Source of the DNA: Patescibacteria group bacterium | GTDB lineage: Bacteria; Patescibacteriota; Minisyncoccia; UBA6257; UBA9933 | Reading direction: 5' to 3' | Assembly: GCA_038062875.1 (NCBI GenBank) | Contig: JBBTWF010000001.1 | Coordinates: forward strand, 27,769-91,768 | Length of the DNA stretch: 64,000 nucleotides | Notes under the pieces: generated by a model | Told to the model about the DNA's origin: nothing | The model's input: the letters and a program-made list of their open reading frames with translations, nothing else | Databases searched by the model: none | Shown: positions 12,527-61,506 of the stretch, piece by piece | Layout of the letters: every line of letters begins with the position of its first letter | How positions within the stretch are numbered: the first letter of the stretch is position 1 | Position numbers and translations under genes: made by a program

Positions 12527-13783
12527 ATGTTAGACATCAATTTAATCCGTAGCAATCCAGAATTAGTCAAAAAAGGCGTTTCCGCCAAAAATATAAACCC
12601 TCAATTAGTGGACGAGTTTTTGGTCTTAGACAAAGAATGGAGGGAATTGACCGCCAAATTGGATAATTTGCGGGCAGAGCAGAATAAACTAAGCAGTGAA
12701 AGAAAAATTGACGAGGCAAAAGAAAATAAAATAAAAATTAAAGGGATAGAAGATAAATTAAATGAAACAGAAAAACGGCGCGAGGAAATTTTAATGAGTT
12801 TGCCGAATTTGCCGTTTGATGATGTGCCAGTTGGCAAAGACGAAAGTGGTAATGTAGTAATTCGCGAGGTTAATAAAAAACCCGATTTTGATTTTCAGCC
12901 AAAAAACTATTTAGAACTCGCCGAGAAGCTGGGCTTGATTGATATAGAGCGAGCATCTAAAGTTTCCGGCAGTCGGTTCGGTTATCTAAAAAATCAAGCC
13001 GCGCTTTTTGAATTCGCTTTGATAAAATTGGCGATGGATACGGCGGTTGCCGAAGGATTTACGCCGATTGTTCCGCCGGTAATGGTCAAAAGCAAAATGA
13101 TGAAAGCAATGGGATATATTGACCGCCGTGAAGATCAAGACGAAACATATTTTTTAAAAGAAGACGATTTATATTTAGTCGGGACATCCGAACAGTCAAT
13201 CGGCCCGATGCATAGCGATGAAATTTTTAACGAAAAAGAATTACCAAAAAGATATGTCGGATTTTCAACGTGCTTTCGGCGAGAAGCCGGTTCTTACGGA
13301 AAAGATACAAAAGGTATTTTAAGAGTTCATCAATTTGATAAAATCGAGATGTTTAGTTTTTGTGAGCCGGAAAAATCAAAAGAAGAGCACGGGTTGTTAT
13401 TGGGAATAGAAGAAAAATTAATGCAGGCGCTTGGATTGCCATATCGGGTTTTAAGTATTTGTACGGGCGATTTAGGGGGACCGGCAGCGGCAAAATACGA
13501 CATTGAAGTTTGGTTGCCGGGTGAAAATCGCTACCGCGAAACCCATTCCACTTCCAATTGCACCGACTTTCAGGCGCGCCGGTTGAATATAAAATATAAA
13601 CCTAAAACCCAAAACCTAAAACCTAAAACCGATTATGTTCATACTTTGAACGGCACCGCTTTCGCTATCGGCAGAACACTCATCGCTATTATTGAAAACT
13701 TTCAGCAAAAAGACGGCACAATTTTAGTGCCGGAAGTTTTACAAAAATATTTGGGATTTGAGAAAATTGGGCTGTCCAGTTGA
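12527..13783 (+). CDS. serS: Seryl-tRNA synthetase carrying an in-frame heptamer-repeat insertion (KPKTQNLKPKT)
   Basis: N-terminal coiled coil plus class II core (FRREAGSYGKDTKGILRVHQFDKIEMF); the insertion at 13601-13630 is (CCTAAAAC)-type repeats. Confidence 0.9.
   Translation: MLDINLIRSNPELVKKGVSAKNINPQLVDEFLVLDKEWRELTAKLDNLRAEQNKLSSERKIDEAKENKIKIKGIEDKLNETEKRREEILMSLPNLPFDDVPVGKDESGNVVIREVNKKPDFDFQPKNYLELAEKLGLIDIERASKVSGSRFGYLKNQAALFEFALIKLAMDTAVAEGFTPIVPPVMVKSKMMKAMGYIDRREDQDETYFLKEDDLYLVGTSEQSIGPMHSDEIFNEKELPKRYVGFSTCFRREAGSYGKDTKGILRVHQFDKIEMFSFCEPEKSKEEHGLLLGIEEKLMQALGLPYRVLSICTGDLGGPAAAKYDIEVWLPGENRYRETHSTSNCTDFQARRLNIKYKPKTQNLKPKTDYVHTLNGTAFAIGRTLIAIIENFQQKDGTILVPEVLQKYLGFEKIGLSS
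13601..13630. repeat. In-frame tandem repeat cctaaaacccaaaacctaaaacctaaaacc inside serS
   Basis: Same 7-8-mer repeat unit as the intergenic elements; it encodes a KPKTQNLKPKT loop. Confidence 0.85.
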
Positions 13784-13791
13784 CTGGACAG
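13772..13791. terminator. Perfect 20-bp palindrome CTGTCCAGTTGACTGGACAG spanning the serS stop codon, between convergent genes; likely a bidirectional terminator or protein-binding site
   Basis: Palindrome read directly; it shares the core CAGTTGACTG with the palindromes at 20143 and 22014. Confidence 0.5.
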
Positions 13792-13807
13792 GGAAGATTT
13801 ATAATAT

Positions 13808-14320
13808 TTAAAACTCTGTGGCGTTATCATAAGTAGTAGCGTTTTTGTTTATATAATTTTTTCCAAAACAATTCCAAGGCAATTTTATGTTAAAATCGGG
13901 AAAATGATTTAATATCCATTGAACGTAGGTGTTGCTATTGGGACCCCAAAGTAGATATTTGTCGCGATAAGGATAACTGTTTTTAGATTTTTCTATAAAA
14001 TTGAAAATATTTTTTGCTGCTGAATTTTCATTACCTTCAATATAGTTTAGTAATTTTGCGTTCCACAAAAATTTTGATATATAAGGAATTATTTCAATGC
14101 CCGAAAATGAGGGTAAAGAGTTTACGTGCAGATGTTTACCTATATTAGGATTACGATTATTTTTTTCAAAACGAACTTCCCACCTTGAAATCTCGCCATT
14201 TCTAACACAAACAAACCAAGAATGTATTGCAAAATTACACGGTATCGATGCTGGACAAATAAATAAAAAAACCTGATAGCCATTTGGTTTAACTAATTTT
14301 TGAAAATTCTTTGCCTCCAT
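13808..14320 (-). CDS. Hypothetical protein, DUF3750-like (GPNSNTY motif)
   Basis: 170-aa ORF; the WGPNSNTYVQWILNHFPDF block resembles the DUF3750 signature as recalled from memory, so the assignment is uncertain. Confidence 0.4.
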   Translation of the reverse strand: MEAKNFQKLVKPNGYQVFLFICPASIPCNFAIHSWFVCVRNGEISRWEVRFEKNNRNPNIGKHLHVNSLPSFSGIEIIPYISKFLWNAKLLNYIEGNENSAAKNIFNFIEKSKNSYPYRDKYLLWGPNSNTYVQWILNHFPDFNIKLPWNCFGKNYINKNATTYDNATEF

Positions 14321-14432
14321 AAAAATTAAACGGAGCGATCGATTTTACACAACTAATTATTATGCGAAATCGTGATTTCGGCTTTTGTTTATGCTATAAT
14401 TTTAGATATTAATTATAGAAAAGGCAAATAGT

Positions 14433-15242
14433 ATGATAAAAGACGGCATATATTTTGACGAAAAATTGGAGCGGAGGAGAAAGCGGATGTTAAAAATCAA
14501 AATTTACGGCGGGTTAACGATTTTTTTTCTTTTAATAATAGGCGCCGGGTATTTAGTTGTTTATTCTTCGGTTTTTCAAATAACGCGGATTGATGTTGAT
14601 ATTAACGCGGATTTACGCGGGTTTGAAACGCAAATAATTGAGGACTTAAAAATTCTCTTTACCAATCAGTCAAAAATATCTTCATTTCTTGGACCGGATA
14701 ATATTTTAATTTGGGAAAGCGGAGACGATATTGAGCAATTCAAAAAAAATAATCCATTAATTGCCTATTTGGTTATTAGTAAAGATTACATTGAGCGTAA
14801 AATTAAAATAGAAGTAAAAGGGAGGGAGAAATACGGCGTTTGGTGTAAATCAGCAATCAACTATTGTTGGTGGTTTGATAAAAGCGGTATTATTTTCGCC
14901 GAAGCGCCAATGGTTGAAGGCGCTTTGATAAATAAAGTGAATGATTCCACGGGTCGCGATTTAAAAATCGGCGACACGATTATTGAACAGAGATTTTTGG
15001 ATAATTTATTGAAAATTTTCGCGGTTTTGGAAGAAACGAATTTAGGAAAAGGTTTTTTGAATTTGGAAAATTTGAGTTTGCAAGAAATTATTTTTAATTC
15101 TCCTCTTGGCTTTAAAATATATTTTAGCTTAAGATTTGACCCGCGATTCAGCTTAGCCGGCATTAAGTCCATCAAAGAAATCGGTTTGGAAAAGATGGAT
15201 TATATTGATTTTAGAGTGGAGAATAGGGTTTATTATAAATGA
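14433..15242 (+). CDS. Cell-division FtsQ/DivIB-like protein (single TM plus POTRA-like domain)
   Basis: N-terminal basic segment, one TM helix, then a beta-rich extracytoplasmic domain; weak family-level call. Confidence 0.4.
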   Translation: MIKDGIYFDEKLERRRKRMLKIKIYGGLTIFFLLIIGAGYLVVYSSVFQITRIDVDINADLRGFETQIIEDLKILFTNQSKISSFLGPDNILIWESGDDIEQFKKNNPLIAYLVISKDYIERKIKIEVKGREKYGVWCKSAINYCWWFDKSGIIFAEAPMVEGALINKVNDSTGRDLKIGDTIIEQRFLDNLLKIFAVLEETNLGKGFLNLENLSLQEIIFNSPLGFKIYFSLRFDPRFSLAGIKSIKEIGLEKMDYIDFRVENRVYYK

Positions 15243-17137
15243 TAAATAAATATAGACGTTCCAGCTTTTGCGTCCGGTTTATACGGGTCTTTCAGCGCTT
15301 TCAGCCATCGATATTCGTCTTCGGGATTTCGTAATTGTCCTTGATGAAGTTTACCTATGGCGCCTTGTAAATTATTAATAGAAATCGCTATCCAGTTGAT
15401 TCCTTCTTCTTTAGGGTTGCCTTTTGACGATTGCCAATATTCAACCTTATTTTCTCCTAAGTAATACTTTGAATTTCCGCCGCCGAAATAATCGATCGCG
15501 ATTTTGTCGTTATTAGAAAGATTTTTTTCAACGAATATTTTCAGTCGTTTCAAGTCCTGTCCCCAGTCATAATTTGAATCAACTACATATTTATAGCCGC
15601 TCTCAACTCCGCCGCCGAATTGATTAAAGTAAGAAAGATAATGAGGAGTTGCAAATAAAACTTCCGTTAAGTACCAGATTATTAAAACAGCGATAACAAC
15701 ACCTTTAAAAGAAGTTTTTATAAGATTAAAGATGGTTTTGGCGATTCGTTTCCATAATCTTTCATCATTAATCATTTTTCTGATTGTCCATTTTTTTAGG
15801 GCGCTGGCGGTCAGAATATAAATAAAAGGCATAGTAGGCAGAATATGGCGAATGCCGATATTTAACGGGCTTTTAATGCTGTAGAGCCAGTAGAAAATCA
15901 CAAAAGAAATCATTGAAAATTCGGCGAAATGGGTGCCAATGTAGTCGCTGAAAGTTTTTAGTTTATAGGTTTTAGGTTTTAGGTTTTTAATAATACTCCA
16001 AAGACCCAACAAAAATGCTAATCCGATTAAAATCATTGAAGGAATCGGTTCTTTTAAAATAAAAACCATCGGGAAATAATACCACCAGCCACTGGCCGAG
16101 ACCTCACCCAAGAAATAAGCGGTGTTGCCTCCGGACGAACGTTGCATAACCATTAAAACGCCGAGCATATATTCGGCTAACGGCCGAGTAAGTCGGTTTT
16201 CAGACATAATAATATTAATATCAGCTAAACATCGCAGTTTGTTGTGATTCAAGTCGCATATTTTATTGCTTGGAGCCGGACCGTCGGCAAAAGAAGTTAG
16301 GATTGTTTTAGTGTCGGAAACCTGTTTTTCAACTGGATAGTTAAAAGTGAATAGAAAATAAACCGCGTAGACCAAAGCGTAACCGATTATAAAAATAGAA
16401 ATTAATTGACCTGCGCATTTAAGAAAGTGGAGCAAAATTTTTCTCCATTCAAGATTGATTTTCCAAATTAAGAAAATGATTATTAGAAAAATAAAGAACG
16501 GGATTAAAAGAACGGCGGAAAATTTTATCAATTGGGCGATACCGAAAGCCAAACCAGCCCAAATTAGATGTTTTCGCGACGGAGAAAAAAGAAATTTAAC
16601 GAAATAATAAATAGCCAGAAATATTCCCAAAGCCGCGCCGATATCTGTGGTCACATAATGGCCGTGCGCTAAAACAGCGGGGGAAAATGAAAAGAGAAAA
16701 GTCGGCAATAATGCCCACCAGCGGCCGATTAATTCCCGCGCCCAGATATAAATAAAAATAACCAAGAGCAGAGTTAAAAGCATTGGGCCAAGTCGCGCCC
16801 AACCAACTATTTTATCAGCGTCATTTCCGGATTCATAAAGGAATTGGGCGCCGGCTACCCATTGGCCGTTAACATCGGTTCGCCAAGACGATTTATCAGT
16901 TGGGAAATTTAGGTTTTGAAATAATAAGGGTAAAGCGGACAGGGCTTTAACTAAGGGCGGATGTTCGGGATTAAGTCGATAATCAAGATAGCGGGCATAG
17001 CCGTAGCCAGATGGAATATGCGCCAATTCATCCATAGTGGCTGATTCTTTAAGAGAGGCGTTGAGCATCAAACCAAAACAGGACAGAACCATCAGCGCTA
17101 CCAAGCCCCATTGAATCCAGGAAAGTGTCTTAGTCAT
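15233..17137 (-). CDS. Polyprenol-phosphate-dependent glycosyltransferase of the GT39/GT83 (PMT/ArnT) family, multi-pass membrane, with an in-frame repeat insertion
   Basis: N-terminal DELAH...YxxxP motif (MDELAHIPSGYGYARYLDYRLNPEHPPLVKAL), more than 10 TM segments; 15965-15988 on the minus strand is the heptamer repeat (NLKPKTYKLKT). Confidence 0.7.
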   Translation of the reverse strand: MTKTLSWIQWGLVALMVLSCFGLMLNASLKESATMDELAHIPSGYGYARYLDYRLNPEHPPLVKALSALPLLFQNLNFPTDKSSWRTDVNGQWVAGAQFLYESGNDADKIVGWARLGPMLLTLLLVIFIYIWARELIGRWWALLPTFLFSFSPAVLAHGHYVTTDIGAALGIFLAIYYFVKFLFSPSRKHLIWAGLAFGIAQLIKFSAVLLIPFFIFLIIIFLIWKINLEWRKILLHFLKCAGQLISIFIIGYALVYAVYFLFTFNYPVEKQVSDTKTILTSFADGPAPSNKICDLNHNKLRCLADINIIMSENRLTRPLAEYMLGVLMVMQRSSGGNTAYFLGEVSASGWWYYFPMVFILKEPIPSMILIGLAFLLGLWSIIKNLKPKTYKLKTFSDYIGTHFAEFSMISFVIFYWLYSIKSPLNIGIRHILPTMPFIYILTASALKKWTIRKMINDERLWKRIAKTIFNLIKTSFKGVVIAVLIIWYLTEVLFATPHYLSYFNQFGGGVESGYKYVVDSNYDWGQDLKRLKIFVEKNLSNNDKIAIDYFGGGNSKYYLGENKVEYWQSSKGNPKEEGINWIAISINNLQGAIGKLHQGQLRNPEDEYRWLKALKDPYKPDAKAGTSIFIYHL

Positions 17138-17172
17138 TGAATATTATTATATCATAATTTATAATTAAAGTA

Positions 17173-17583
17173 ATGTGGAAATCTAATAAATTTAAAAAAC
17201 AATCTGGGCAGGTGATGCTTCTGACAATAGTGGTTTTAAGCGGAACGCTTATGACAGTTTCAGGAGTTGTTGGGTTTTTAATGCTTCATAAAATAAGGCA
17301 GTCAACGGATATTGTTAATTCCGCTAAGGCGATTTTTGCCGCTGACAGTGGAATTGAATGGGAGCTTTACAGGTGTTTTAAATGCAAATCAGTTGAAATT
17401 TGCGATTTTTCTTGCGCGTCTCCTTACGACAATCCGCCTCCAATGACAAATAGTTCCAATTTTACCGCTATCATCACCGATATTGACACTGATGGAAAAC
17501 CGGATTTTATAAAATCAATCGGCAAAGCCGGAAACACTGCTAGGGCCTTTCTAATGATGCTCCAAGGCGCAACCGGACCCTAA
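17173..17583 (+). CDS. PilX-like pilus-assembly protein N-terminal domain protein
   Basis: KKQSGQVMLLTIVVLSG...NSAKAIFAADSGIEWELYR resembles the PilX N-terminal pattern (Q.G..L...L ... A..AAE.G.E). Confidence 0.35.
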   Translation: MWKSNKFKKQSGQVMLLTIVVLSGTLMTVSGVVGFLMLHKIRQSTDIVNSAKAIFAADSGIEWELYRCFKCKSVEICDFSCASPYDNPPPMTNSSNFTAIITDIDTDGKPDFIKSIGKAGNTARAFLMMLQGATGP

Positions 17584-17610
17584 ATTTTTGCTTAATAAAA
17601 ATTTAATAAG

Positions 17611-19701
17611 ATGGATAAAAAAGCCGCCAAAGAACGAATAGAACATCTCAAAAAAACAGTAAATCATCATCGCTATCTTTATCATGTTTTAGACCGTCAA
17701 GAAATATCTGACGCGGCTTTGGATTCTTTAAAAAAAGAACTTTTTGATTTAGAACAAGAATTTCCGGAATTTATCACTTCGGATTCTCCGACTCAAAGAA
17801 TTGGAGGCCAACCGTTAAAACAATTCAAAAAAGTTCGTCATGAAGCGCAGATGCTTTCTTTTAACGACGCTTTTTCCGAGCAGGATATGAGGGATTGGTT
17901 GAAGCGCGTTGAAAATTATCTTGGTTCTAAAATAACCCAAAACCCAAAACCCAAAACCCAAAACCTCTTTTATTGCGAATTAAAAATAGACGGTCTAGCG
18001 ATTGAGCTGGTTTACGAAAACGGCATTTTAACGCAGGGGTCAACTCGAGGAGATGGAATTGTTGGCGAAGATGTGACGCAGAATTTAAAAACTATTGAAG
18101 CGATACCGTTAAAACTAAAAACCAAAAACTTAAAAACTAAAAAACTTGTTGTAAGAGGCGAGGTCTTTATTAAAAAAAAAGAATTTGAAAGGATTAATAA
18201 AGAGCAGATTAAAAAAGGAGAAAAAGTTTTTGCTAATCCGCGTAATCTCGTGGCAGGTTCAATTCGCCAGCTTGACCCGAAAATTACCGCCAGTCGCAAA
18301 TTAGATTCGTATATTTATGATATAGCAACGGATTTAGGCATTGCTGTTCATGAAGAAAAACATAATTTTCTTGAGTCGTTTGGTTTTAAAATTAATTCTC
18401 ATAATAAAGCGGTTGGGTCGTTAGAAGAGGTTTTTAAATTTCGCGACTATTGGGAGAAGCATAGAGATAAATTACCTTACGAAATTGATGGCATTGTGAT
18501 AATTGTTAATGATAATAAAATTTTTGAGGAAGCCGGAGTTATCGGCAAAGCGCCGAGGGGCGCGATTGCTTATAAATTTTCGGCTAAGGAGGCAACGACG
18601 ATTGTTGAAGATATTAAAATCCAAGTTGGTCGGACCGGCGCGTTAACGCCCGTAGCTATTTTAAGGCCCATAGAATTGGGCGGGATAAGAATTTCGCACG
18701 CTACTTTGCATAATTTTGGCCAGATTAAACGGCTGGAATTGAAAATCGGCGATACTGTTATTATTTCAAGGGCAGGAGACGTAATTCCCCAAGTAAGTAA
18801 AGTATTAAAGGATTTGCGAAACGGGAAAGAAAAAGAATTTAAAATACCCGCTAATTGTCCAGTTGACGATTCAAAAGTAATAAAGCAGGGGGAGATTTAT
18901 CGTTGTTCTAATAAAGATTGCGGCGCTAGAAATAGGGAATCGTTGCGTCATTTTGTTTCTAGGGCGGCTTTTGATATTAGGGGATTGGGAGGTAAAATTA
19001 TAGACCGATTTCTTGACGAGGGTTTGATCAGCGACGCGGCTGATATTTTTACTCTTGAAGAAGGGGACATCGCCGGTCTTGAAAGATTCGGCGAAAAATC
19101 CAGTCAAAACATAATTTCTGAGATTCGGTCCCGTAAAATTATAAATTTAGCGAGGTTTATTTATGGTTTGGGGATTTTACATATCGGTGAAGAGACGGCT
19201 TTGCTTCTTGCGAAAGCAGTGTCAAGTATTAAGTATTCCGCCTTCGTGGCTGCTTCGGTGGGCAAGCAAGTATTAAGGCCTGTTCAAATATCGGAAATTT
19301 TAAAAAACTTTTCATTAGAAAAACTTCAAGAAATTCCCGATATCGGGCCTAAAGTGGCGCAGAGTATTTATGATTGGTTTCATAATAAGCGAAGTGTTGA
19401 GTTTTTAAAGAAATTGGAAAAAGTTGGAATTCAAATAGAAATTCCCAAACTAAAAACTTCCGCCAGAGGCGGATCCGCCTTCGGCGGAAAAACCTTCGTA
19501 TTAACCGGCAGTTTGGAATCAATGAGTCGTGAACAGGCAAAAGAAAAAATCCGTTCGCTGGGCGGCGATATTTCAGAATCAGTTAGCAAGAAAACCGATT
19601 ATTTAGTGACTGGTTTTGAACCTGGCTCAAAATACGAAAAAGCGAATAAATTAGGAGTGAAAGTGATTAATGAAAAAGAGTTGTTGGAATTACTTGGTTA
19701 A
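17611..19701 (+). CDS. ligA: NAD-dependent DNA ligase LigA with three in-frame repeat insertions
   Basis: Adenylation site KIDG (CELKIDGLAIELVYENG), OB fold, Zn finger (CPVDDSKV...CSNKDC), HhH and BRCT domains. Insertions lie at about 17934-17967, 18111-18145 and 19459-19490. Confidence 0.95.
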   Translation: MDKKAAKERIEHLKKTVNHHRYLYHVLDRQEISDAALDSLKKELFDLEQEFPEFITSDSPTQRIGGQPLKQFKKVRHEAQMLSFNDAFSEQDMRDWLKRVENYLGSKITQNPKPKTQNLFYCELKIDGLAIELVYENGILTQGSTRGDGIVGEDVTQNLKTIEAIPLKLKTKNLKTKKLVVRGEVFIKKKEFERINKEQIKKGEKVFANPRNLVAGSIRQLDPKITASRKLDSYIYDIATDLGIAVHEEKHNFLESFGFKINSHNKAVGSLEEVFKFRDYWEKHRDKLPYEIDGIVIIVNDNKIFEEAGVIGKAPRGAIAYKFSAKEATTIVEDIKIQVGRTGALTPVAILRPIELGGIRISHATLHNFGQIKRLELKIGDTVIISRAGDVIPQVSKVLKDLRNGKEKEFKIPANCPVDDSKVIKQGEIYRCSNKDCGARNRESLRHFVSRAAFDIRGLGGKIIDRFLDEGLISDAADIFTLEEGDIAGLERFGEKSSQNIISEIRSRKIINLARFIYGLGILHIGEETALLLAKAVSSIKYSAFVAASVGKQVLRPVQISEILKNFSLEKLQEIPDIGPKVAQSIYDWFHNKRSVEFLKKLEKVGIQIEIPKLKTSARGGSAFGGKTFVLTGSLESMSREQAKEKIRSLGGDISESVSKKTDYLVTGFEPGSKYEKANKLGVKVINEKELLELLG
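17934..17967. repeat. In-frame tandem repeat (AACCCAAAAC)n inside ligA (NPKPKTQNL)
   Basis: Direct repeat read from sequence. Confidence 0.8.
18111..18145. repeat. In-frame tandem repeat (CTAAAAAC/CAAAAAC)n inside ligA (LKLKTKNLKTKKL)
   Basis: Direct repeat read from sequence. Confidence 0.8.
19459..19490. repeat. GC-rich palindromic in-frame mini-insertion TCCGCCAGAGGCGGATCCGCCTTCGGCGGA in ligA (family copy 3)
   Basis: Identical to the rpsH copy; preceded by ctaaaaact. Confidence 0.85.
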
Positions 19702-19733
19702 TAATCTTTTTTGTTTTATGTTAAAATATTTTT

Positions 19734-20130: not shown

Positions 20131-20142
20131 TATAATTTGGCT

Positions 20143-53391: not shown

Positions 53392-54381
53392 ATGTTTCAA
53401 AAAAGAGTTTTACTCAGTAAATACAGTAATTTTAAAATCGGGGGACCGGCGAAATATTTTTTTGAAGCAAAAAATGTAGAAGAAATTATAAAAGCGGTTA
53501 AATTAGCGAAGCGTTTAAAAACGCCTTTTTTTATTTTAGGCGGCGGAACCAATATTTTATTTAGCGATAAAGGATTCAACGGGTTGGTTTTAAAACCTAA
53601 TATTAAATTTATTAAAAGAAATGGAAATTTTTTGCGAGTCGGCGTTGGAGTCCAAATATCTCAATTGCTTAATTATTCAATAAATAATAATTTAACTGGC
53701 TTAGAGTGGTCGGCCGGTATTCCCGGAACGATTGGTGGAGCGGTTAGGGGCAATGCCGGCGCGTTCGGCGGAGAAATGAAAGATATAATCACGGAGGTTT
53801 CGAGTTTGGATATTTCAGAAGCGCGTTTTAAAATTATAAAAAGAAAAAAATCAGATTGTTGTTTTGGTTATCGTTCGAGTATATTCTCCGCCGAAGGCGG
53901 ATCCGTCTCTGGCGGAAAAAATTCAAAAACGAAGGAGATTATTACGGAAGTTGTTTTGCGATTAAAAAAAGGCGAAAAGAGTAAAATAAAAGAAATTATA
54001 AATAGAAACATCAGTTACCGTCGGAAAAATCACCCTCTGGGATATCCCAGCGCCGGAAGTGTTTTTAAAAATGTGGATATCGTTGATTTTCACGAATATG
54101 AGCGCGAATATCGTAAATATTTAAATAAAAGATTCGTAAAAATTAGCGGAAAATTCGCACCGATTAACGATGGTAAGATTCCAGCCGCTTATTTAATTGC
54201 AGAAGCCGATTTAAAGGGAATTTCTCGCGGCGGAGCGATGATTTCGTCTAAACATCCGAATTTTATTGTTAATATTTCTAATGCTACGGCAAAAGATGTA
54301 AAAAATTTGATTAAATTAGCAAAGAAAGAAGTAAAAAATAAATTTAAAGTAGATTTAGAAGAGGAAATAGTTTTTGTTTGA
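53392..54381 (+). CDS. murB: UDP-N-acetylenolpyruvoylglucosamine reductase with an in-frame GC-palindrome insertion
   Basis: FAD-binding FKIGGPAKYFFE...GGGTNILF, catalytic Ser region; the insertion at 53886-53915 encodes SAEGGSVSGGKN. Confidence 0.8.
   Translation: MFQKRVLLSKYSNFKIGGPAKYFFEAKNVEEIIKAVKLAKRLKTPFFILGGGTNILFSDKGFNGLVLKPNIKFIKRNGNFLRVGVGVQISQLLNYSINNNLTGLEWSAGIPGTIGGAVRGNAGAFGGEMKDIITEVSSLDISEARFKIIKRKKSDCCFGYRSSIFSAEGGSVSGGKNSKTKEIITEVVLRLKKGEKSKIKEIINRNISYRRKNHPLGYPSAGSVFKNVDIVDFHEYEREYRKYLNKRFVKISGKFAPINDGKIPAAYLIAEADLKGISRGGAMISSKHPNFIVNISNATAKDVKNLIKLAKKEVKNKFKVDLEEEIVFV
53886..53915. repeat. GC-rich palindromic in-frame mini-insertion CTCCGCCGAAGGCGGATCCGTCTCTGGCGGA (family copy 4, slightly degenerate)
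   Basis: Compared directly with the copies at 5164, 6724 and 19459. Confidence 0.8.
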
Positions 54382-54645
54382 GGAAAATTTTTATTTTTAA
54401 TGAAATTAAAGTTATCCACAGTTTACATTTAATCTAATTGTTCTAAAATTAATATAAAGATTGAAAAATTATTTTTTAAATTATCAATCTTTTAGTAAAG
54501 TTATATAATCTAATACGGTTGAATGGTCGGCAATCGTGTTAAATTTAAAAATTCTTAATTAGTCGATATTGAGCTTAACGTGAAATATCGACAATACGCC
54601 ACAATGGCAAAGAAAAAAGCAGGAAAAAAAAAGAAGAAATAAATT

Positions 54646-54706
54646 CTTTCCCCCTCTTTCCCCACTTAATAAAAGCGACAAGAAAGAGGGGTTTTTATTT
54701 TTAATA
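54646..54706 (+). terminator. Hairpin CCCTCTTTC...GAAAGAGGG followed by a T-run, just after a 12-codon lysine-rich mini-ORF (MAKKKAGKKKKK, 54604-54642)
   Basis: Read directly; upstream of hpf. Confidence 0.45.
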
Positions 54707-54727
54707 AAATAAGTTATAATATATAAT

Positions 54728-55081
54728 ATGAAAATCAACATTAAAACAACCAACTTGGAAATCACCCCCGCTATTAACGATTATTTAGAATTAAAAATCG
54801 GCTCTCTTAAGCGTTTTCTTAATAAATTTGAAAAAGACGATGAGGTGATTATTTCCACGGAAATTGCCAAGACAACCAAGCATCACAAAAAGGGAGATGT
54901 GTTCTACGCTGAAGCCAATATTTGTTTACCGGGAAAAATTTTAAGAGCCGAACATTCCGATTGGGATATTAGGGTGGCGATTGATAATGTTAGGGACAAA
55001 CTTCAACAAGAAATAAAGAAATATAAAACAAAGAAAGAAATTTCTCGTAAAATTGGAGCTAAGTTGCGCGGGAAAAAATAA
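54728..55081 (+). CDS. hpf: Ribosome hibernation promoting factor / RaiA family
   Basis: MKINIKTTNLEITPAINDYLELKIGSLKRF, the YfiA/HPF fold signature. Confidence 0.8.
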   Translation: MKINIKTTNLEITPAINDYLELKIGSLKRFLNKFEKDDEVIISTEIAKTTKHHKKGDVFYAEANICLPGKILRAEHSDWDIRVAIDNVRDKLQQEIKKYKTKKEISRKIGAKLRGKK

Positions 55082-55096
55082 TTTGCGGATTATTAT

Positions 55097-57592
55097 ATGT
55101 TTAATTTTTTTAAAAATATTTCAAAAAAACAATCTTATGCGCCTCTAATCGAGGCGATTAATAATTTTGAGCCGGCTTTAGAAAAATTAACGGATGAAGA
55201 ATTAAAAAAGAGAAGCGAAGGAATTAAAAAATCTGTTGCTGAGGATACTAATTTTAATTTAGACGATTTATTACCTGAAGCGTTCGCTTTAACGCGGGAA
55301 GCCGCGAAACGAACACTTAATCAGCGTCACTTTGACGTTCAATTAATCGGTGGCATTGTTCTCCACCAAGGAAAAATCGCAGAGATGCTTACTGGAGAAG
55401 GAAAAACTTTGGCAGCCACGGCGCCAGCTTATTTAAACGCTTTAACCGGAAAAGGCGTTCATATTATTACTGTGAATGATTATTTGGCTCGGCGCGACGC
55501 AGTTTGGATGGGACAGATTTATTACGCGTTAGGAATGTCGGTGGGGTGTTTGACTCATGAATCCGCTTATTTATACGACCCGGGTTATGTCAATGAAAAA
55601 GATAAAGAACGCGATATTTTGGGCGGCTTTAAGGTGATTCAGGATTTTTTAAAACCAATTAGTCGTCGCGAAGCGTATCAAGTCGATATTCTTTACGGCA
55701 CCAATCATGAATTCGGCTTTGATTTTCTTCGGGATAATTTAGCTTATCGTTTGGAAGACCAGGCCCAAAGCAATAAATACAATTATGCGATTATTGACGA
55801 AGTTGACAGTATTTTAATTGACGAAGCTAGGACGCCATTGATTATCGCGGCGCCGGACGCCGAATCCAGCGATTATTATCGGATTTTTTCCAAAGTCGTC
55901 GAGCGGCTCCAGAAAGATGAGGACTACGCGGTTGATGAAAAAATGAAATCAGTTAATATTACTGACGTTGGAATCGATAAAGTTGAAAAAATTCTTAGCG
56001 TTGAAAATTTTTATGGTTCGGAAAATTTCCGTTTAGTCCATTATTTGGAAGAATCTTTACGCGCTAAAGCGCTGTTTCATTTAGATAAGAATTATGTTGT
56101 GAAGAATGGCGAAATTATTATTGTTGACGAGTTTACGGGTAGGATGATGCACGGCCGCCGATATTCCGGCGGACTTCATCAGGCGATTGAAGCCAAAGAA
56201 GGCGTAGCCATCAAGCAGGAGTCAAAGACATTCGCCCAGATTACAATTCAGAATTATTTCCGTTTATACAAAAAAATCGCCGGGATGACAGGAACGGCTC
56301 AAACATCAGCTGAAGAATTTCATAAAGTTTATAATTTAGAAGTAGTTAGTATCCCGTCTAATAAACCGACAATCAGGCAAGATTTATCAGACCTTATTTA
56401 TAAAAACCTTGAGGCAAAATATAGGGCTGTTATTGACGAAATTAAAAATCGGCATTCAATGGGCCAGCCGATTTTAATAGGCACCGCTTCAATTGAAAAA
56501 AATGAAATTTTGTCGGATTTACTGAAACAAGTCGGCATCCCTTACGAGGTCTTAAACGCTAAGAATCATGAGCGGGAAGGCGCGATTATCGCCCAAGCCG
56601 GAAAATTGGGAGCTGTTACAGTTGCCACTAATATGGCTGGCAGAGGAGTTGACATTGTTTTAGGCGGCAATCCGGCAGACCCATTGGAAGCTCAAAAAAT
56701 AAAAGAAATCGGCGGTCTTCATATTATCGGCACTGAACGGCACGAAGCTCGGCGAATTGATAATCAATTGAGGGGAAGAGGCGGTCGGCAAGGCGACCAG
56801 GGTTCTTCCCAATTCTTTTTGTCTTTAGAAGACGATTTGCTTCGGATTTTCAGCGGCGAAAAAATAAAGTCGTTTATGGAAAGATTTAATTTGCCGGAAG
56901 ACCAGCCGATTGAATCAAAATTGGTCTCAAAAGTCGTTAACGAGGCGCAAAAGAAAATTGAGGGATTAAATTTTGACGCCCGAAAACATCTTTTGGATTT
57001 TGACGATGTTTTAAACAAACAGAGAACGGCGGTTTATTCAAAGCGTCAGGCAATTTTGGGATCTCAAGCTATCGGCGAAGAGCTTAAAAAAATTATTTTT
57101 AGCGCTTTTGAACGGATTAAAAATCAAGTTGCGAACGAAGAAGAATTAAAAAAGATTTTAAATGAATCTGGTATTGAATTATCGGAAGGCGGACTTCTGA
57201 ATATTGACGTGGAAATAGAAAGCCTTCTTAAAGATTTTCAAGAACAAACCAAAATGAAAATTTTGGGAATTTTAGATATGCTTTGGATGAGTCATTTGGA
57301 AAATATGGAGGCATTGTCGGAATCGGTTCGGTTAAGGGCTTACGGTCAGCACGACCCATTAGTTGAATATCGGCATGAAGGCAGACGTTTGTTTAAGGAT
57401 TTATTCGTTAATTTTGAGGGATTGGTATTCGGCAATATTTTTAAAACACAAGCTGGCACCGGCAATCAATCTCAAGGAGTAAAAAAAGTTGTTTTGTCTA
57501 ATGAAATTAATAGCGGACAGAAAAAAATAGGACGAAATGATTTATGTTTTTGCGGTTCTAATAAAAAATATAAAAAATGCCACGGAGCTTAA
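55097..57592 (+). CDS. secA: Preprotein translocase ATPase SecA (with a C-terminal zinc-binding tail)
   Basis: DEAD-like motor motifs (MLTGEGKT, DEVDSILIDEARTPLII), preprotein-binding domain and wing domain; the tail reads CFCGSNKKYKKCHG. Confidence 0.95.
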   Translation: MFNFFKNISKKQSYAPLIEAINNFEPALEKLTDEELKKRSEGIKKSVAEDTNFNLDDLLPEAFALTREAAKRTLNQRHFDVQLIGGIVLHQGKIAEMLTGEGKTLAATAPAYLNALTGKGVHIITVNDYLARRDAVWMGQIYYALGMSVGCLTHESAYLYDPGYVNEKDKERDILGGFKVIQDFLKPISRREAYQVDILYGTNHEFGFDFLRDNLAYRLEDQAQSNKYNYAIIDEVDSILIDEARTPLIIAAPDAESSDYYRIFSKVVERLQKDEDYAVDEKMKSVNITDVGIDKVEKILSVENFYGSENFRLVHYLEESLRAKALFHLDKNYVVKNGEIIIVDEFTGRMMHGRRYSGGLHQAIEAKEGVAIKQESKTFAQITIQNYFRLYKKIAGMTGTAQTSAEEFHKVYNLEVVSIPSNKPTIRQDLSDLIYKNLEAKYRAVIDEIKNRHSMGQPILIGTASIEKNEILSDLLKQVGIPYEVLNAKNHEREGAIIAQAGKLGAVTVATNMAGRGVDIVLGGNPADPLEAQKIKEIGGLHIIGTERHEARRIDNQLRGRGGRQGDQGSSQFFLSLEDDLLRIFSGEKIKSFMERFNLPEDQPIESKLVSKVVNEAQKKIEGLNFDARKHLLDFDDVLNKQRTAVYSKRQAILGSQAIGEELKKIIFSAFERIKNQVANEEELKKILNESGIELSEGGLLNIDVEIESLLKDFQEQTKMKILGILDMLWMSHLENMEALSESVRLRAYGQHDPLVEYRHEGRRLFKDLFVNFEGLVFGNIFKTQAGTGNQSQGVKKVVLSNEINSGQKKIGRNDLCFCGSNKKYKKCHGA

Positions 57593-57599
57593 TTTTTTG

Positions 57600-59396
57600 A
57601 TGAATAATATAAGAAATTTCGTTATTATCGCGCATATTGACCACGGCAAGTCAACTTTAGCTGATAGATTTCTGGAGATTACCGGAACTGTTGAATCCCG
57701 CAAAATGAAAGAGCAGTACTTAGATCAATTGGATTTAGAAAGAGAACGTGGGATTACTATAAAAATGGCTCCTGTGCGGATGTCCTATATTCTTTCGCCT
57801 CAGGCGGAAAATTCTCAACCCTACATTCTTAATCTTATTGACACGCCAGGCCATCCGGATTTCTCTTACGAGGTCTCTCGGGCCTTAATAGCTGTTGAGG
57901 GAGCTATTTTATTGGTTGATGCCACTCAAGGTATTCAGGCGCAAACTTTAGCTAATTTTCATATTGCTAAACGAGCGGGTTTAAAAATAACAGGCGCAGT
58001 CAATAAAATAGATATGAATCCGCCGCAGTTGTTTCAAGTAATGAAAGAGTTAGCGGATTTGATAGGTTGTTCTATTGAAGAAATTTATAAGATTTCCGCA
58101 AAAACTGGAGAAGGAGTGGAGGAACTTTTAAAAGCGGTTATTAGAAATACGCCACCGCCGAAAAATTTAATGCCCGAATCCACTCGAGCTTTGGTGTTTG
58201 ATTCTTTTTACGATGACCATAAAGGAATTATCGCGTCAGTAAGAGTTTTTGATGGCGAAATAAAAGGCGACAATGATATGCGTTTAATCGCCACCGATAC
58301 TCCTTTTAAGATTAAAGAAATCGGTTATTTTTCTCCGCAATTGATGCCGGCAAAATCATTAAATACCGGAGAAATTGGTTATGTCGCTACTGGTATTAAA
58401 GATCCGGAGAATGTAAAAATCGGCGATACGATAACAATTGGCGAATCGCAAAGCGCAAATCGTAAAGCGTTGGCATTGGAAGGTTATCAGGAGCCAAAAC
58501 CGGTGGTTTTTGTGTCTTTTTATCCGGAAGAAAGTGATAATTACGATGATTTAAAAAGAGCGCTGCAGAAATTAAAATTAAACGATTCAGCGTTGAAATT
58601 TGAACCTGACTTTAATGATGTTTTGGGAAGGGGATTTAAGGGGGGATTTTTAGGCAAACTTCATTTTGAAATTACGGCAGAGCGTCTTGAGCGGGAATTC
58701 AATATGAAAACCATCAATAGTTTCCCGTCCGTAGCTTATAAGATAAAAAAGAAAAATGAATGGTTGGTTATTGAAAATCCCAAAGATCTTTCGGGCGATT
58801 TCGACGAAATCCAAGAGCCTATAGTTAATTTGGAAGTTATTACGCCAACGATTTATCTGGGCGGTATTTTTCAACTAAAAGAGATTTTCAGGATAAATGA
58901 TATTCATGCCCATAATCAAGGAGACAGAACGTTAATCACCGCGAAAATGCCTTTAGCTGAATTAATTTCCGATTTTGACGACAAACTTAAATCCGTTTCC
59001 AACGGTTTCGCTTCTTTCAGTTATGAATTAGTCGATTACAAGAAGTCAGATTTGCAAAAATTGGAAATTTTAGTCGCTGGCGATTTAGTCGCCGGTTTAA
59101 TAAGGGTCTTTCCCAGAAAATCCATTGAGCATGAAGCGAGAAAAATGGTTGAGAAACTTAAAAAAGTATTGCCTCGTCAGCAGTTTAGCCAGGCGATTCA
59201 GGCGGTTGTTGGGAGCAAGATTATTGCCCGCGAGACGGTCCCGGCTTTCAGGAAAGACGTTACGGGTTATCTTTACGGAGGCGATCGCACCCGTAAAATG
59301 AAGCTCTGGAAAAAACAGAAAAAAGGCAAGAAGCGGCTAGAGAAGATGGGAAGCGTAAAAATATCTACAGACGTATTCAAAAAAATGATACAATAA
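57600..59396 (+). CDS. lepA: Elongation factor 4 (LepA)
   Basis: NFVIIAHIDHGKSTL, DTPGH, NKID G-motifs plus a LepA-specific C-terminal domain; ATG at 57600. Confidence 0.95.
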   Translation: MNNIRNFVIIAHIDHGKSTLADRFLEITGTVESRKMKEQYLDQLDLERERGITIKMAPVRMSYILSPQAENSQPYILNLIDTPGHPDFSYEVSRALIAVEGAILLVDATQGIQAQTLANFHIAKRAGLKITGAVNKIDMNPPQLFQVMKELADLIGCSIEEIYKISAKTGEGVEELLKAVIRNTPPPKNLMPESTRALVFDSFYDDHKGIIASVRVFDGEIKGDNDMRLIATDTPFKIKEIGYFSPQLMPAKSLNTGEIGYVATGIKDPENVKIGDTITIGESQSANRKALALEGYQEPKPVVFVSFYPEESDNYDDLKRALQKLKLNDSALKFEPDFNDVLGRGFKGGFLGKLHFEITAERLEREFNMKTINSFPSVAYKIKKKNEWLVIENPKDLSGDFDEIQEPIVNLEVITPTIYLGGIFQLKEIFRINDIHAHNQGDRTLITAKMPLAELISDFDDKLKSVSNGFASFSYELVDYKKSDLQKLEILVAGDLVAGLIRVFPRKSIEHEARKMVEKLKKVLPRQQFSQAIQAVVGSKIIARETVPAFRKDVTGYLYGGDRTRKMKLWKKQKKGKKRLEKMGSVKISTDVFKKMIQ

Positions 59397-59403
59397 TAAC
59401 GGC

Positions 59404-59664
59404 ATGAAGATTATCATTGTTATCATTATCGTTATTGTTATTATTATGGTGTTGGCCTATGTTTATTTCAGTTTTCAGGAACAGCGACAGATGAAAGAAA
59501 ATCTTTCCAATTTAAACGCGCAAATTAAAACGCTTGTTGGAGAAAATGACGAGCTTAAATCGGAAATTGAATATTTCTCTCATCCGGAAAATCTAGAAAA
59601 GGAATTGAAAACGAAATTTAATTATCGGAAACCGGACGAAAAAATGATGATTATTGTACCGTGA
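59404..59664 (+). CDS. FtsB/DivIC-like septum formation initiator (TM plus coiled coil)
   Basis: Hydrophobic N-terminus, then a heptad coiled coil (NLNAQIKTLVGENDELKSEIEY) and KPDEK, resembling the FtsB PGE motif. Confidence 0.45.
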   Translation: MKIIIVIIIVIVIIMVLAYVYFSFQEQRQMKENLSNLNAQIKTLVGENDELKSEIEYFSHPENLEKELKTKFNYRKPDEKMMIIVP

Positions 59665-60248
59665 TTAAAATGAAATACAAAAAAATACTATTTTGGCTTA
59701 TCCCCCTTATTTTAATTGCCGGAGGACTATATTTTATATTATCCGATTCTTATCCTGTGGCTTTGGTTAATGAGCAGATAATTGAGGCGAGAGATTTTGA
59801 AAAGGACTATGCCAGCGCTCTGCGATATTATCAGAGTGTTTTTAAGGTTTACAAGGAAGATGCGGCAAAACTTGATTCCCAAGAATCTAAACAGGAAATC
59901 AGGCGGGCGACTTTGGATAAATTGATTGAAAATAAACTGATTCGCGAAAATTTGGAGAAATTGATTAAAAACGATGAATTAAAAAATATGGTTGCTCAAA
60001 AAATCAAAGAAGCCGTTAAAGAAAGCCCCGATATTCAAAAAGGCGTTCAGACGCTTTATGGGCTTTCATTAGATGATTTTAAGCAAAGAATTTTAGCGCC
60101 TCAAGCGGAAAGGGAAATTCTTGAAGGTCGGTTGTATCTTGACGGTAAAAAAATAGATGAATGGCTGAAACAAGAAAAATCCAAAGCCAAAGTAATAATT
60201 TTAATTTCCGGTTTTGGTTGGGACGGAGAAGGAGTTATAATTAAATAA
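59661..60248 (+). CDS. Hypothetical membrane-anchored SurA-N-terminal-like chaperone domain protein
   Basis: N-terminal TM plus a helical domain; weak. Confidence 0.35.
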   Translation: MIKMKYKKILFWLIPLILIAGGLYFILSDSYPVALVNEQIIEARDFEKDYASALRYYQSVFKVYKEDAAKLDSQESKQEIRRATLDKLIENKLIRENLEKLIKNDELKNMVAQKIKEAVKESPDIQKGVQTLYGLSLDDFKQRILAPQAEREILEGRLYLDGKKIDEWLKQEKSKAKVIILISGFGWDGEGVIIK

Positions 60249-60254
60249 CTAATT

Positions 60255-60325
60255 TGCGGGATTAGTATAGTGGTAATACGCAACCTTCCCAAGGTTGAGT
60301 CGCCGGTTCAATTCCGGTATCTCGC
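60255..60325 (+). tRNA. tRNA-Gly (anticodon CCC)
   Basis: Manual cloverleaf: acceptor GCGGGAU/AUCUCGC (one G-U pair), D-arm AGUAUAGUGGUAAUAC, anticodon stem CAACC/GGUUG with loop UUCCCAA, T-arm GCCGG-UUCAAUU-CCGGU. Confidence 0.85.
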
Positions 60326-60336
60326 TTTTTTAAAAA

Positions 60337-61506
60337 ATGAAATTTTTAAGCGATTTAAAACAGAAAAATTTACGAGATAAAACCTGTCTTTTACGGGTTG
60401 ATTTTAATATTCAAAATGTTGATTTACGTAGATATTCGCAAAAAGCTCCGTTTAGAATAGAAGCGGTTTTGCCGACGATTAAATTTTTAACCAGCAGGGG
60501 AGCGAAGGTGGTGATTTTGAGCCATCGCGGTCGCCCCAAAGGGGCAAACCTCGCCCAAAAGGCGGGAAGGCCAACTTCGTTATCTCTTAAGCCGTTCGTA
60601 AAAATTTTATCTTCTTTATTAAAAAATCCTGTTAATTTTATAACTCTAAGCGAGCTTGGTCTTATTAATAAGACCAAGCAAAAAATAAAAAATGCGAAAC
60701 CTGGGAGTGTTTTTTTGGTAGAGAACCTTCGTTTTTTCCCGGTCGAAGAAAAAAATGACAAAAAATTCGCAAAGCGGCTGTCTTTTTTGGGTGATATTTA
60801 TATAAATGACGCTTTTGCGGTGAGCCACCGAAAAAATGCTTCGGTTGTCGCCATTACGAAGTTTCTTCCAAGCTATGCCGGCTTGCTTTTGGAAAAAGAA
60901 ATAAAAAATTTAAATAAGGCGATGAAAAATCCTCAAAAACCTTTAGTCGTTATTTTGGGCGGCGCTAAAATTTCAGATAAAATCAGCGTGATTAAAAATT
61001 TTCTAAAAAATGCCGATTGTTTTTTGCTCGGCGGGGGAGTGGCAAATACTTTTTTTGCGGCTCAAGATTTGCCGGTCGGCGGTTCGCTTTATGACAAAAA
61101 CTCAATTCCTTTTATTGCTAATTTATTGAAGTTTAATTTTAACAAATTGATTTTGCCGATAGATTTAGTTGTTCATCAACGAGATATTTTAGATATCGGA
61201 TTGAGAACTATTGAAAAATATTCAAAAATCATTAAGGATGCCAAAACAATCATTTGGAACGGGCCAATGGGATATATTGAAGATCCTAAATTCGCAAATG
61301 GTTCAAAAGAAATAGCTAAGGTGATTATGGCTAACAAAAAAGCATTTGTAGTGGTTGGCGGCGGCGAAACAGTCGTTTCGTTAAAGTCCCCAAATTCTAA
61401 ATCCTATATTCTAAATTCTAATGTTTTCATTTCCACCGGCGGTGGAGCAATGTTGGAATATTTGGCGGGCAAAAAACTGTCGGGTATAACGGCTTTAAAT
61501 AAATAA
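60337..61506 (+). CDS. pgk: Phosphoglycerate kinase with in-frame repeat insertions
   Basis: N- and C-domain motifs (RVDFN, SHRGRPKG, GGGVANTF, GPMGY, GGGA). Insertions: the palindrome at 60657-60678 and (ctaaattct)-type repeats at 61389-61421. Confidence 0.9.
   Translation: MKFLSDLKQKNLRDKTCLLRVDFNIQNVDLRRYSQKAPFRIEAVLPTIKFLTSRGAKVVILSHRGRPKGANLAQKAGRPTSLSLKPFVKILSSLLKNPVNFITLSELGLINKTKQKIKNAKPGSVFLVENLRFFPVEEKNDKKFAKRLSFLGDIYINDAFAVSHRKNASVVAITKFLPSYAGLLLEKEIKNLNKAMKNPQKPLVVILGGAKISDKISVIKNFLKNADCFLLGGGVANTFFAAQDLPVGGSLYDKNSIPFIANLLKFNFNKLILPIDLVVHQRDILDIGLRTIEKYSKIIKDAKTIIWNGPMGYIEDPKFANGSKEIAKVIMANKKAFVVVGGGETVVSLKSPNSKSYILNSNVFISTGGGAMLEYLAGKKLSGITALNK
60657..60678. repeat. 22-bp perfect palindrome TTGGTCTTATTAATAAGACCAA in frame in pgk (ELGLINKTKQ)
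   Basis: Identical to the tpiA copy at 50217-50238. Confidence 0.9.

Follow-up and report, generated by a model that had tools for sequence, protein, structure and literature searches.

Recurrent heptanucleotide arrays in loops of housekeeping proteins of Patescibacteria

The short tandemly repeated repetitive (STRR) heptanucleotide sequences of cyanobacteria were reportedly described by Mazel et al. in 1990, with a heterocystous cyanobacterium as the original host. The small dispersed repeats (SDR) of Nostoc, tiny hairpin elements that are embedded in tandem heptamer arrays, are said to have been reported by Elhai et al. in 2008, and the Rickettsia palindromic elements, which are about 100-150 bp long and add a peptide segment, reportedly by Ogata et al. 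in 2000. Heptanucleotide repeats are the most abundant long simple sequence repeats (SSR) in many bacteria and an origin by polymerase slippage was proposed for them, as the work of Mrazek et al. (2007) is related in PMC4679880 and PMC4692102. They are known from cyanobacteria, Xanthomonas and Beggiatoaceae, where they are mainly intergenic and under-represented in coding regions (PMC4679880, PMC4692102). Here we analyse heptamer arrays in a 64-kb window (the whole stretch of DNA under study), the nearest GatA and LigA relatives of which are metagenome-assembled genomes (MAGs) of Patescibacteria, also known as the Candidate Phyla Radiation (CPR). The main new result is that, judging from the aligned sequences, arrays of this kind recur at orthologous loops in relatives, built there from other units. 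Heptamer repeats as such are already known elsewhere; what seems to be new is their presence in Patescibacteria and their recurrence in the loops of housekeeping proteins. In our literature searches we came across no account of heptamer repeats in Patescibacteria/CPR, or of the recurrent occupation of orthologous housekeeping loops.

An autocorrelation scan for tandem periods detected 26 period-7 arrays in the window, where Markov-1 shuffles led us to expect about 0.5. Each of the other periods from 4 to 13 gave 0-2 arrays, and a signal at period 14 represents the same arrays. Tandem Repeats Finder (TRF) returned dozens of period-7 rows with 2-5.6 copies, and CCYAAAACCYAAAACC occurs 14 times in the window versus 0 times in 100 shuffles. 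14 of the 26 arrays (54%) lie wholly inside open reading frames (ORFs), in frame, and the other 12 are located in, or at the edge of, very short spacers. An earlier note on this DNA had described heptamer and octamer repeats in frame in nine named genes. All nine are indeed represented among the 14 in-frame arrays and the heptamers are borne out, but octamers occur only as irregular units within the ligA array at 18111-18143. Three further in-frame arrays had not been listed, in the genes for a class II aminoacyl-tRNA synthetase (aaRS), MreC and RNase H.

We give practically no credence to the view that these arrays are an artefact of assembly or sequencing, or low complexity that arose by chance. 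It is true that repeats trouble k-mer assemblers, the Logan contigs being interrupted at double hairpins and at the longest of the arrays. However, across the arrays the window agrees at 100% identity with the ENA assemblies ERZ1292624 and ERZ1292633 and with Logan assemblies from ten runs. This identity covers positions 3405-5190, 10194-23178 and 50337-64000, so that independent assemblies from other samples reproduce the arrays base for base. In addition, the ORFs are maintained, and chance would account for about 0.5 of the 26 arrays. The pgk array is identical in 7 assemblies, but only assemblies with an identical Pgk protein could enter this look-up, which is therefore uninformative for that array. 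The serS gene is present and identical in L151 (labels such as L001 or L101 denote retrieved loci of relatives or of the window's own population). Exact-protein look-ups of the gatA and serS ORFs gave no match, which is no evidence of variation, as the index is incomplete and the gene caller places the start of gatA further downstream. As a separate observation, the Logan k-mer contigs L001 and L002 begin inside the longest AAATCCT array (window position 3405) and L152 begins inside the ligA double hairpin (19463); small repeats therefore suffice to fragment short-read assemblies of this genome.

The orthologs aligned with the window proteins came from 80 genome loci and 61 metagenome loci, supplemented with solved structures from the PDB. 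The best relative had 70% identity for gatA (GTDB representatives) and 73-79% for ligA (JGI/ENA metagenomes). No genome of the same species was found among the retrieved relatives, and strain comparison was limited to identical contigs of the window's own population. We refer to the array sites as A to D in ligA and 1 to 3 in gatA.

Among 60 ligA genes we counted 38 period-7 arrays, versus 2-4 for each of the periods 5, 6, 8, 9 and 10. All 38 are located at four hot spots, which correspond to residues ~103-119, 167-179, 536-558 and 607-627 of the window protein. Likewise, the arrays in 38 gatA genes cluster at residues 246-258 and 330-341, and they do so in Patescibacteria only. At ligA site A, arrays are also carried by L020 and L023, and at site B by about 10 orthologs; at gatA site 1 they are found in L014, L018, L020 and L023, and at gatA site 2 in L003, L007, L015, L020 and L023. 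The units vary by genome, and include AAATTCC, AATTCAG, GTATCAA, GACAAGC, TACAAAT, AAAGCGA and CAAGTTT, among others. Many orthologs carry no array at the same loops and show no other change. Low-complexity loops at homologous sites, which the earlier note had set against its own view of the arrays as insertions if they proved universal, are thus found in many Patescibacteria, but they are not universal and their units differ. Since the same ligA and gatA loops hold arrays in many Patescibacteria, the sites appear to be old.

Site D of ligA is particularly instructive. Every array-bearing ortholog has 31 residues at this site, as do most array-free orthologs (range 28-33), and in L089 as many as 6.3 perfect units are accommodated within the 31-residue linker. 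The equal span with and without an array indicates that arrays can occupy a loop without altering its length. The corresponding loop of the window protein has 34 residues versus 31 in most orthologs, and it aligns without gaps to E. coli LigA.

A wider census covered 92 Patescibacteria loci (1.1 Mb) and yielded 113 period-7 arrays in coding sequences (CDS) and 74 in intergenic DNA (187 in total, 60% in CDS), the CDS count being inflated by the fact that these loci had been ascertained via ligA and gatA. Any one of the periods 5, 6 and 8-11 gave at most 21 CDS or at most 9 intergenic arrays, and at most 28 in total. With the window and duplicates left out and ligA, gatA and gatC masked, there remained 30 CDS arrays (4.7 per 100 kb) and 50 intergenic arrays (60 per 100 kb) with period 7, the former being 2-2.5 times the numbers of CDS arrays obtained for period 6 (12) and period 9 (15). 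In 20 cyanobacterial loci from the same search, the same tool found 95 intergenic and 11 CDS arrays (~10% in CDS), in keeping with what is known of STRR. Per kb, the density of arrays is 6-15 times higher in spacers, and the counts in CDS are 14 of 26 for the window and 113 of 187 for the loci. In both Patescibacteria and cyanobacteria the mode of array length is 4 units, and 63 of the 113 CDS arrays of Patescibacteria have this length. The densest locus that we noted is L010 (9300-17150; MAG AUK098, JAGGVK010000031.1), which is denser than the window, with 18 period-7 arrays in 21 kb, the units ATTTTTC, AAAAATG, AGATTTG and AAAATCT, and recurring composite blocks around 12190-12700 and 16684-17131.

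The arrays of the window thus resemble STRR and other long heptanucleotide SSR in their head-to-tail 7-nt units, in the exclusive enrichment of period 7 and in their mode of about 4 units. They also share with STRR the frequent inverted pairs, the genome-specific units and a position that is conserved between relatives while the sequence differs. They depart from STRR in their host, which belongs to the Patescibacteria rather than the cyanobacteria, and in the share of arrays that lies in CDS: 54% in the window and 60% in the Patescibacteria loci, versus about 10% in the cyanobacterial loci.

Within the window, all AT-rich units are at most 1-2 substitutions away from NCTAAAW, the members of this family being CCTAAAA, CCCAAAA, CCTAAAT, TCTAAAT (equivalent to CTAAATT), ACTAAAA, GCTAAAA and TCTCAAT. 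The units CCTAAAA/CCCAAAA and AAATTCT/AAATCCT are found in coding arrays as well as in the right arms of intergenic hairpins, in agreement with the claim of the earlier note that the hairpins are built from the same units as the coding arrays. The sharing of units is also a property of genomes in general. Identical consensus units were observed in 10-12% of within-genome pairs of arrays more than 500 nt apart, versus about 1% of pairs from different genomes. When only the ligA and gatA sites were compared, units that differed by at most one substitution were found in 36% of pairs from different sites of the same genome, in 14% of pairs from the same site of different genomes, and in 7% of the rest. 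These figures suggest that the position of an array is inherited with the gene, whereas the sequence of its unit is largely a property of the genome. That the unit follows the genome more than the site is what concerted evolution would produce, and the roughly 10-fold excess of within-genome sharing points to a family process at the level of the genome.

Differences between close relatives, which were determined from MAFFT pair alignments (a blastn gap census with cheap gap penalties was too noisy and was discarded), show how the arrays turn over. L101 and L102, with 96.6% amino acid identity in LigA, are exactly 21 nt apart at site B, where one TTAGAAA-like unit in the one faces four in the other, a difference of three heptamers or 7 residues. 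L083 and L098 (97.1% identity) differ at site C, where L083 has a perfect (AATTCAG)x4.5 and L098 has AATTAAG/AATTTAG. This is a change at the same position in every unit, and it looks like homogenisation. The length variation that the earlier note had expected is therefore absent, at the level of consensus, among the assemblies of the window's population, but it is present as a clean 21-nt difference between 97%-identical relatives.

We lean towards explaining these observations by STRR-like heptanucleotide repeats that evolve in concert and that are tolerated and translated in unconstrained loops. A process acting in a 7-nt register would create and re-homogenise arrays of about 4-5 units, its most likely source being replication misalignment or slippage within arrays together with short-patch exchange among the arrays of a genome. 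Slippage or conversion would then be the molecular mechanism, and the arrays would be nearly neutral. They would persist only where constraint is weak, that is in spacers, variable surface loops and inter-domain linkers. In very short spacers they would form inverted pairs, hence the hairpins, and in protein loops they would simply be translated. Within genes, selection would act as a filter in four ways. Firstly, it would favour the A/C-rich strand as the sense strand, giving hydrophilic loops of K, P, T, Q, N, S and L; secondly, the TAA that falls in frame every 21 nt would be removed by point changes; thirdly, changes in length would be accepted only in steps of three units (21 nt, 7 residues); and lastly, loop length would be kept within the range of the orthologs. 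On this best reading of the alignments, the array sites would be long-lived and constantly re-homogenised, rather than fresh insertions.

Several observations bear on the proposed filters. A perfect (CCTAAAA)n or (CTAAATT)n would give an in-frame TAA every 21 nt, and in every coding array this triplet is altered to CAA, TAC, TAT or TCA, or a stop-free unit (CCCAAAA, CTCAATT) is used instead. In 11 coding arrays taken together, the reading frame holds 0 stop triplets, as against 15 and 18 for the two alternative frames. This bias indicates that the coding arrays are translated and filtered by purifying selection. The coding arrays of the window are single direct repeats without an inverted partner and are not self-complementary. 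In genes, it is the A/C-rich strand that invariably serves as the sense strand, also in the minus-strand PMT gene. The composition of the sense strand of coding arrays is 49% A, 24% T, 19% C and 8% G, whereas background CDS has more G than C. Nearly all genes of the window are on the plus strand, with a positive GC skew throughout and a GC content of about 37%. In genes of the minority orientation, A exceeds T in 10 of 13 arrays and C exceeds G in 11 of 13. The rule is thus kept in these genes, so that the orientation follows the sense strand rather than the strand of replication, and we rejected a replication-strand bias as its cause. The orientation is presumably tied to the hydrophilic peptide.

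A heptanucleotide tract within a CDS is also the architecture of neuO in E. coli K1, a gene that is ON solely at copy numbers divisible by 3 (PMC13001214). As a change of one unit in the window arrays would cause a frameshift, and the frame would be kept only by changes of three units, as in neuO (PMC13001214), the arrays could in principle be contingency loci that switch genes on and off by slippage. We regard this as very improbable. The neuO tract has 3-53 perfect units at the 5' end of a dispensable, phage-borne gene and varies in the population. The tracts of the window, by contrast, have 4-5 units, are mostly imperfect and are located mid-gene in loops rather than at the 5' end. Moreover, their hosts are single-copy essential housekeeping genes (serS, ligA, gatCA, tpiA and pgk), and all the assemblies that were examined have the same, intact ORFs. 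The tandem repeats within ORFs of Borgs, which give rise to disordered protein regions, have unit lengths that are all divisible by three (PMC9879509). Like the window arrays, they are A-rich, are found in spacers and ORFs, evolve fast and encode low-complexity hydrophilic segments (PMC9879509), but the unit here is 7 nt, which is read in three frames and gives a peptide period of 7 residues. Repeats with a unit that is not a multiple of three would be expected to be purged from CDS; here they are the dominant class of repeat in essential genes of a streamlined genome.

The earlier note had interpreted the arrays as a proliferating family that inserts in frame. As the boundaries of the arrays are fuzzy (28-38 nt), only net differences in loop length relative to orthologs are meaningful. 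The arrays encode 10-12 residues and occupy variable loops or inter-domain linkers, the length of which deviates from that of orthologs by -4 to +9 residues.

The serS array (13598-13630, plus strand, as are all of the following arrays but one) has 4.7 units of AAACCTA/AAACCCA, encodes KPKTQNLKPKT in the variable loop before motif 3, and adds 3 residues relative to PDB 2dq0/2dq3 and 2 relative to L093. It is identical to the first 33 nt of the array at gatA site 1 (22779-22816; KPKTQNLKPKTSN), where the loop is 2-4 residues shorter than in orthologs. Site 2 of gatA (23035-23066) encodes QPKTYNLKPKT with a net change of 0 to +4 residues. Site 3 (23382-23396), where the earlier note had seen a full run at 23381-23400, is a remnant of two units (AACCTAA x2.1) with no net change. 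In ligA, site A (17934-17965) is a perfect (AACCCAA)x4.6 that encodes TQNPKPKTQN and adds 8 residues relative to most orthologs and E. coli LigA, whereas site B (18111-18143), with imperfect 6-8-nt units (AAAACTA-like) that encode LKLKTKNLKTKK, adds about none. The imperfect gatC array (19939-19969; about 80% matches, AAAGCTA-like, encoding QNLKLKAKNSK) leaves its linker as long as in orthologs. The array in the PMT/GT39 glycosyltransferase gene (15953-15987, minus strand) has CCTAAAA on the sense strand and encodes KNLKPKTYKLKT. That in the galT-like gene of the HIT family (45912-45939; AAAAACT units, encoding KSQKLKTKNL) adds 7 residues (21 nt) relative to L119. In tpiA, the array at 50689-50718 is a perfect (CTCAATT)x4.3, a stop-free variant of CTAAATT, which encodes LNSQFSILNS and changes the length by -3 to +5 residues relative to PDB homologs. 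The other tpiA element (50540-50590) had been taken for a tandem run, but turned out to be a 16-nt GC palindrome, TCCGCCAGCTGGCGGA, flanked by CTAAATT-type heptamer units, and it adds 9 residues relative to PDB 1b9b and L119/L017. The pgk array (61392-61421; AAATTCT/AAATCCT/ATATTCT, encoding PNSKSYILNSN) adds 4 residues relative to PDB 1vpe. The three arrays that had not been listed before are a purine-rich one (AAGAGGA) in the aaRS gene (41302-41333), in the linker from the catalytic core to the anticodon-binding domain; a short AAGAGGA array in mreC (42844-42860), upstream of the barrel core; and a period-7 array of the AAAGAGG type in the RNase H gene (62437-62463). Pfam confirmed the identities of serS, the PMT/GT39 glycosyltransferase gene, ligA, gatC, gatA, the gene for the GalT-like HIT-family enzyme, tpiA and pgk.

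Within the window, true net insertions are therefore found only at ligA site A (+8), in the galT-like gene (+7) and at the tpiA hairpin element (+9). Outside the window, the arrays at ligA site C represent an insertion of 10-12 residues, relative to outgroups, that is ancestral to a subclade. Since most arrays of 10-12 residues leave the protein length unchanged (-4 to +4), the view of the arrays as fresh in-frame insertions is mostly wrong. What holds of the earlier claim is that a family exists at the level of the genome, as judged by the shared units; its landing in frame as insertions does not hold, most arrays adding no length.

A related possibility is that the arrays belong to a proliferating miniature mobile element, heptamer cassettes of about 30 nt that would be copied to fresh positions, or home into arrays already there, and persist in genes when they are in frame. 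The identity between the serS array and gatA site 1, the units shared by genes and spacers, the roughly 10-fold higher sharing of units within than between genomes, the narrow array size of about 4-5 units and the net insertions at ligA site A, in the galT-like gene and, in a subclade, at ligA site C would all fit such an element. The same is true for the nested 30-nt double hairpins described below, which look insertion-like (present in L102, absent from L101) and of which four window copies share one reading frame. On the other hand, most arrays add no length, unrelated units occupy the same loops in other genomes, and the arrays lack termini, target duplications and self-complementarity. 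In addition, a Pfam scan of a subset of the window ORFs revealed no transposase or reverse transcriptase. We therefore consider a mobile element unlikely, although less so than the other rivals dealt with so far. The analogy would be with cyanobacterial SDR or with the Rickettsia palindromic elements, with which the arrays share the tolerance of non-coding-type repeat DNA, in frame, at surface-exposed positions of housekeeping genes. They differ in that the arrays are about 30 nt long, are not self-complementary and mostly add no length, that homologous sites in other genomes hold other units, and that only the GC hairpins and intergenic pairs fold.

The explanation by tolerated STRR-like repeats also has points against it. 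Slippage by one unit would frameshift an essential gene, so that steps of three units or length-preserving conversion would be required. Expansion and deletion would poorly explain up to 6.3 perfect units in a linker of invariant length, as in ligA site D of L089, and the array length in CDS (63 of 113 with 4 units) is sharply peaked rather than geometric. Furthermore, the sharing of units within genomes points to a dispersal or trans-acting component beyond local slippage. It should also be noted that the CDS counts of the 92 loci are inflated by ascertainment, and that no copy-number variation was seen in the consensus assemblies from the window's own population. Given the unit sharing, the mode of 4 units and the perfect arrays in a linker of fixed length, there is real room for a component of dispersal, conversion or trans-templating.

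Taken further, this would lead to an active, genome-specific and largely length-preserving rewriting process in Patescibacteria, which overwrites permissive loops and linkers of essential proteins as well as intercistronic spacers. Heptamer cassettes would home or be converted, perhaps from a template in trans, and the nested 15-nt hairpins would travel with them as passengers; cyanobacteria would have a process of the same kind. We put this forward as a tentative idea that is about as doubtful as the mobile element. If it were true, no smaller repeat elements than these would be known to act routinely within coding sequence, and the sequence of the unit would be set by a determinant encoded in the genome rather than by local slippage.

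Whichever process operates, the arrays provide a natural system for studying how STRR-type repeats arise and homogenise, a question that has been open since 1990, with a set of orthologous sites (four in ligA and two in gatA) at which repeat turnover can be set against a protein clock. They may explain some of the low-complexity loops rich in K, P, T and N, and some small insertions, in proteins of CPR bacteria. As the arrays and nested hairpins break k-mer assemblies, they matter for assembly as well, and they could serve as strain markers.

In the spacers, the arrays form modules, a representative of which is located at 34494-34568 (plus strand). Here a (TAGAATW)n left arm, within which the upstream gene has its stop codon, precedes TAGGG, and after a loop comes an (AAATCCT)5.4 right arm directly next to the following ATG. 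Modules of similar build are present at 3362-3433, 4704-4769, 8474-8546, 35578-35664 and 45644-45723. The intercistronic spacers concerned consist almost wholly of inverted heptamer arrays. The left arm often takes in the stop codon of the upstream gene, and the right arm, made of (AAATCCT)n or (CCYAAAA)n, stops short of the following start codon by one to a few bases. No Shine-Dalgarno sequence is visible where the right arms abut start codons. Three of the five inverted pairs that were folded are clearly more stable as minus-strand RNA (e.g. -30.2 versus -14.8 kcal/mol at 34485-34572), as the plus-strand A.C mismatches turn into G.U pairs.

The position of these right arms might suggest that the arrays are functional elements maintained by selection, for example as RNA or DNA sites bound by a heptamer-reading protein such as one with a cold-shock domain, as translational pause or unstructured segments at the borders of domains and ahead of start codons, or as flexible hydrophilic linkers under selection in the protein. 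Indeed, CspB has been reported to bind heptamer repeats (PMC4679880). The periodicity is kept at the same loops over deep divergence (50-65% identity in ligA), array length is narrow, and arrays are located at inter-domain linkers in aaRS, ligA, MreC and MurB. Nevertheless, the unit sequence is not conserved per site, many orthologs that are otherwise unchanged lack an array at the same loops, and the arrays occupy exactly those positions that tolerate anything. Moreover, selection at the level of the peptide cannot generate a 7-nt period in DNA, and no trans factor has been identified. Selected function therefore seems to us rather improbable, more so than the mobile element and far less so than contingency loci.

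Nested within the heptamer arrays are 15-nt GC hairpins of the form TCCGCC-N3/4-GGCGGA, of which the window holds 4 doublets of 30 nt and at least 4 singles, flanked by heptamer units. The doublets, of the form TCCGCCNNNGGCGGA x2, number four versus 0 expected. They are located in the gene for ribosomal protein S8 (5164-5193, plus strand), in the C-terminal tail of S5 (6724-6753), in the linker between the HhH and BRCT domains at ligA site D (19459-19488, plus strand; TCCGCCAGAGGCGGA + TCCGCCTTCGGCGGA nested in heptamer units, encoding SARGGSAFGG) and in the MurB linker (53887-53916). To judge from the coordinates, each of the four begins a multiple of three bases from the start of the host gene; all are in frame and read S-A-x-G-G-S-A-x-G-G. 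Of the single hairpins, two are located in tpiA, one in a minus-strand ORF and one within the RNase P RNA gene; those outside the latter gene are at 32381-32396, 50137-50151 and 50558-50573. Loops of relatives hold analogous GC palindromes, which encode, for example, PALPAGR, PSASWR and SAKGGSASGGK. One filled/empty pair was found, L102/L101 at ligA site C, where L102 has a 30-nt double GC hairpin (TCTCGCTTCGCGAGA + TCTGGCAAAGCCAGA) inside the heptamer array, different in sequence from the doublets of the window, that is absent from L101; no such pair was found for the window's own copies. The nested GC hairpins thus appear to behave as separate insertions, and this pair suggests that they may be mobile. 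By description, they are like the SDR of Nostoc, being hairpins of 15-30 nt that are embedded in heptamer arrays and dispersed in many copies; unlike the SDR, they lie in frame in S5, S8, ligA, MurB and tpiA, where they read S-A-x-G-G.

Cyanobacterial RNase P RNAs, according to what Vioque is said to have reported in 1997, carry STRR repeats in a variable helix. In the window, the RNase P RNA gene (62804-63162, minus strand; Rfam RF00010, 112.5 bits) contains the GC hairpin TCCGCCAATCGGCGGA at 62834-62849. An Rfam scan of the window gave no match at the arrays or hairpins, the only matches being this RNA and one tRNA.

The DNA of the window recurs in contigs of 93-104 kb obtained from the 0.1 and 0.2 um filter fractions of groundwater of the Hainich aquifer. 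Two further features were noted. A non-coding stretch of about 340 nt (24690-25075), which is located between a 254-residue ORF without a Pfam match (23912-24676) and the gene at 25104-26108, resembles a repeat-motif non-coding RNA, although Rfam was without a match there. Its roughly 10 tandem units, each of about 36 nt, have the conserved cores GCGAGCC ... AAAACCA, and after them come a strong hairpin and a T-run. Lastly, between gatC and gatA lies a cysteine-rich ORF of 592 residues (20194-21972) with many CxxC pairs and no Pfam match, which is encoded identically in several Hainich assemblies.

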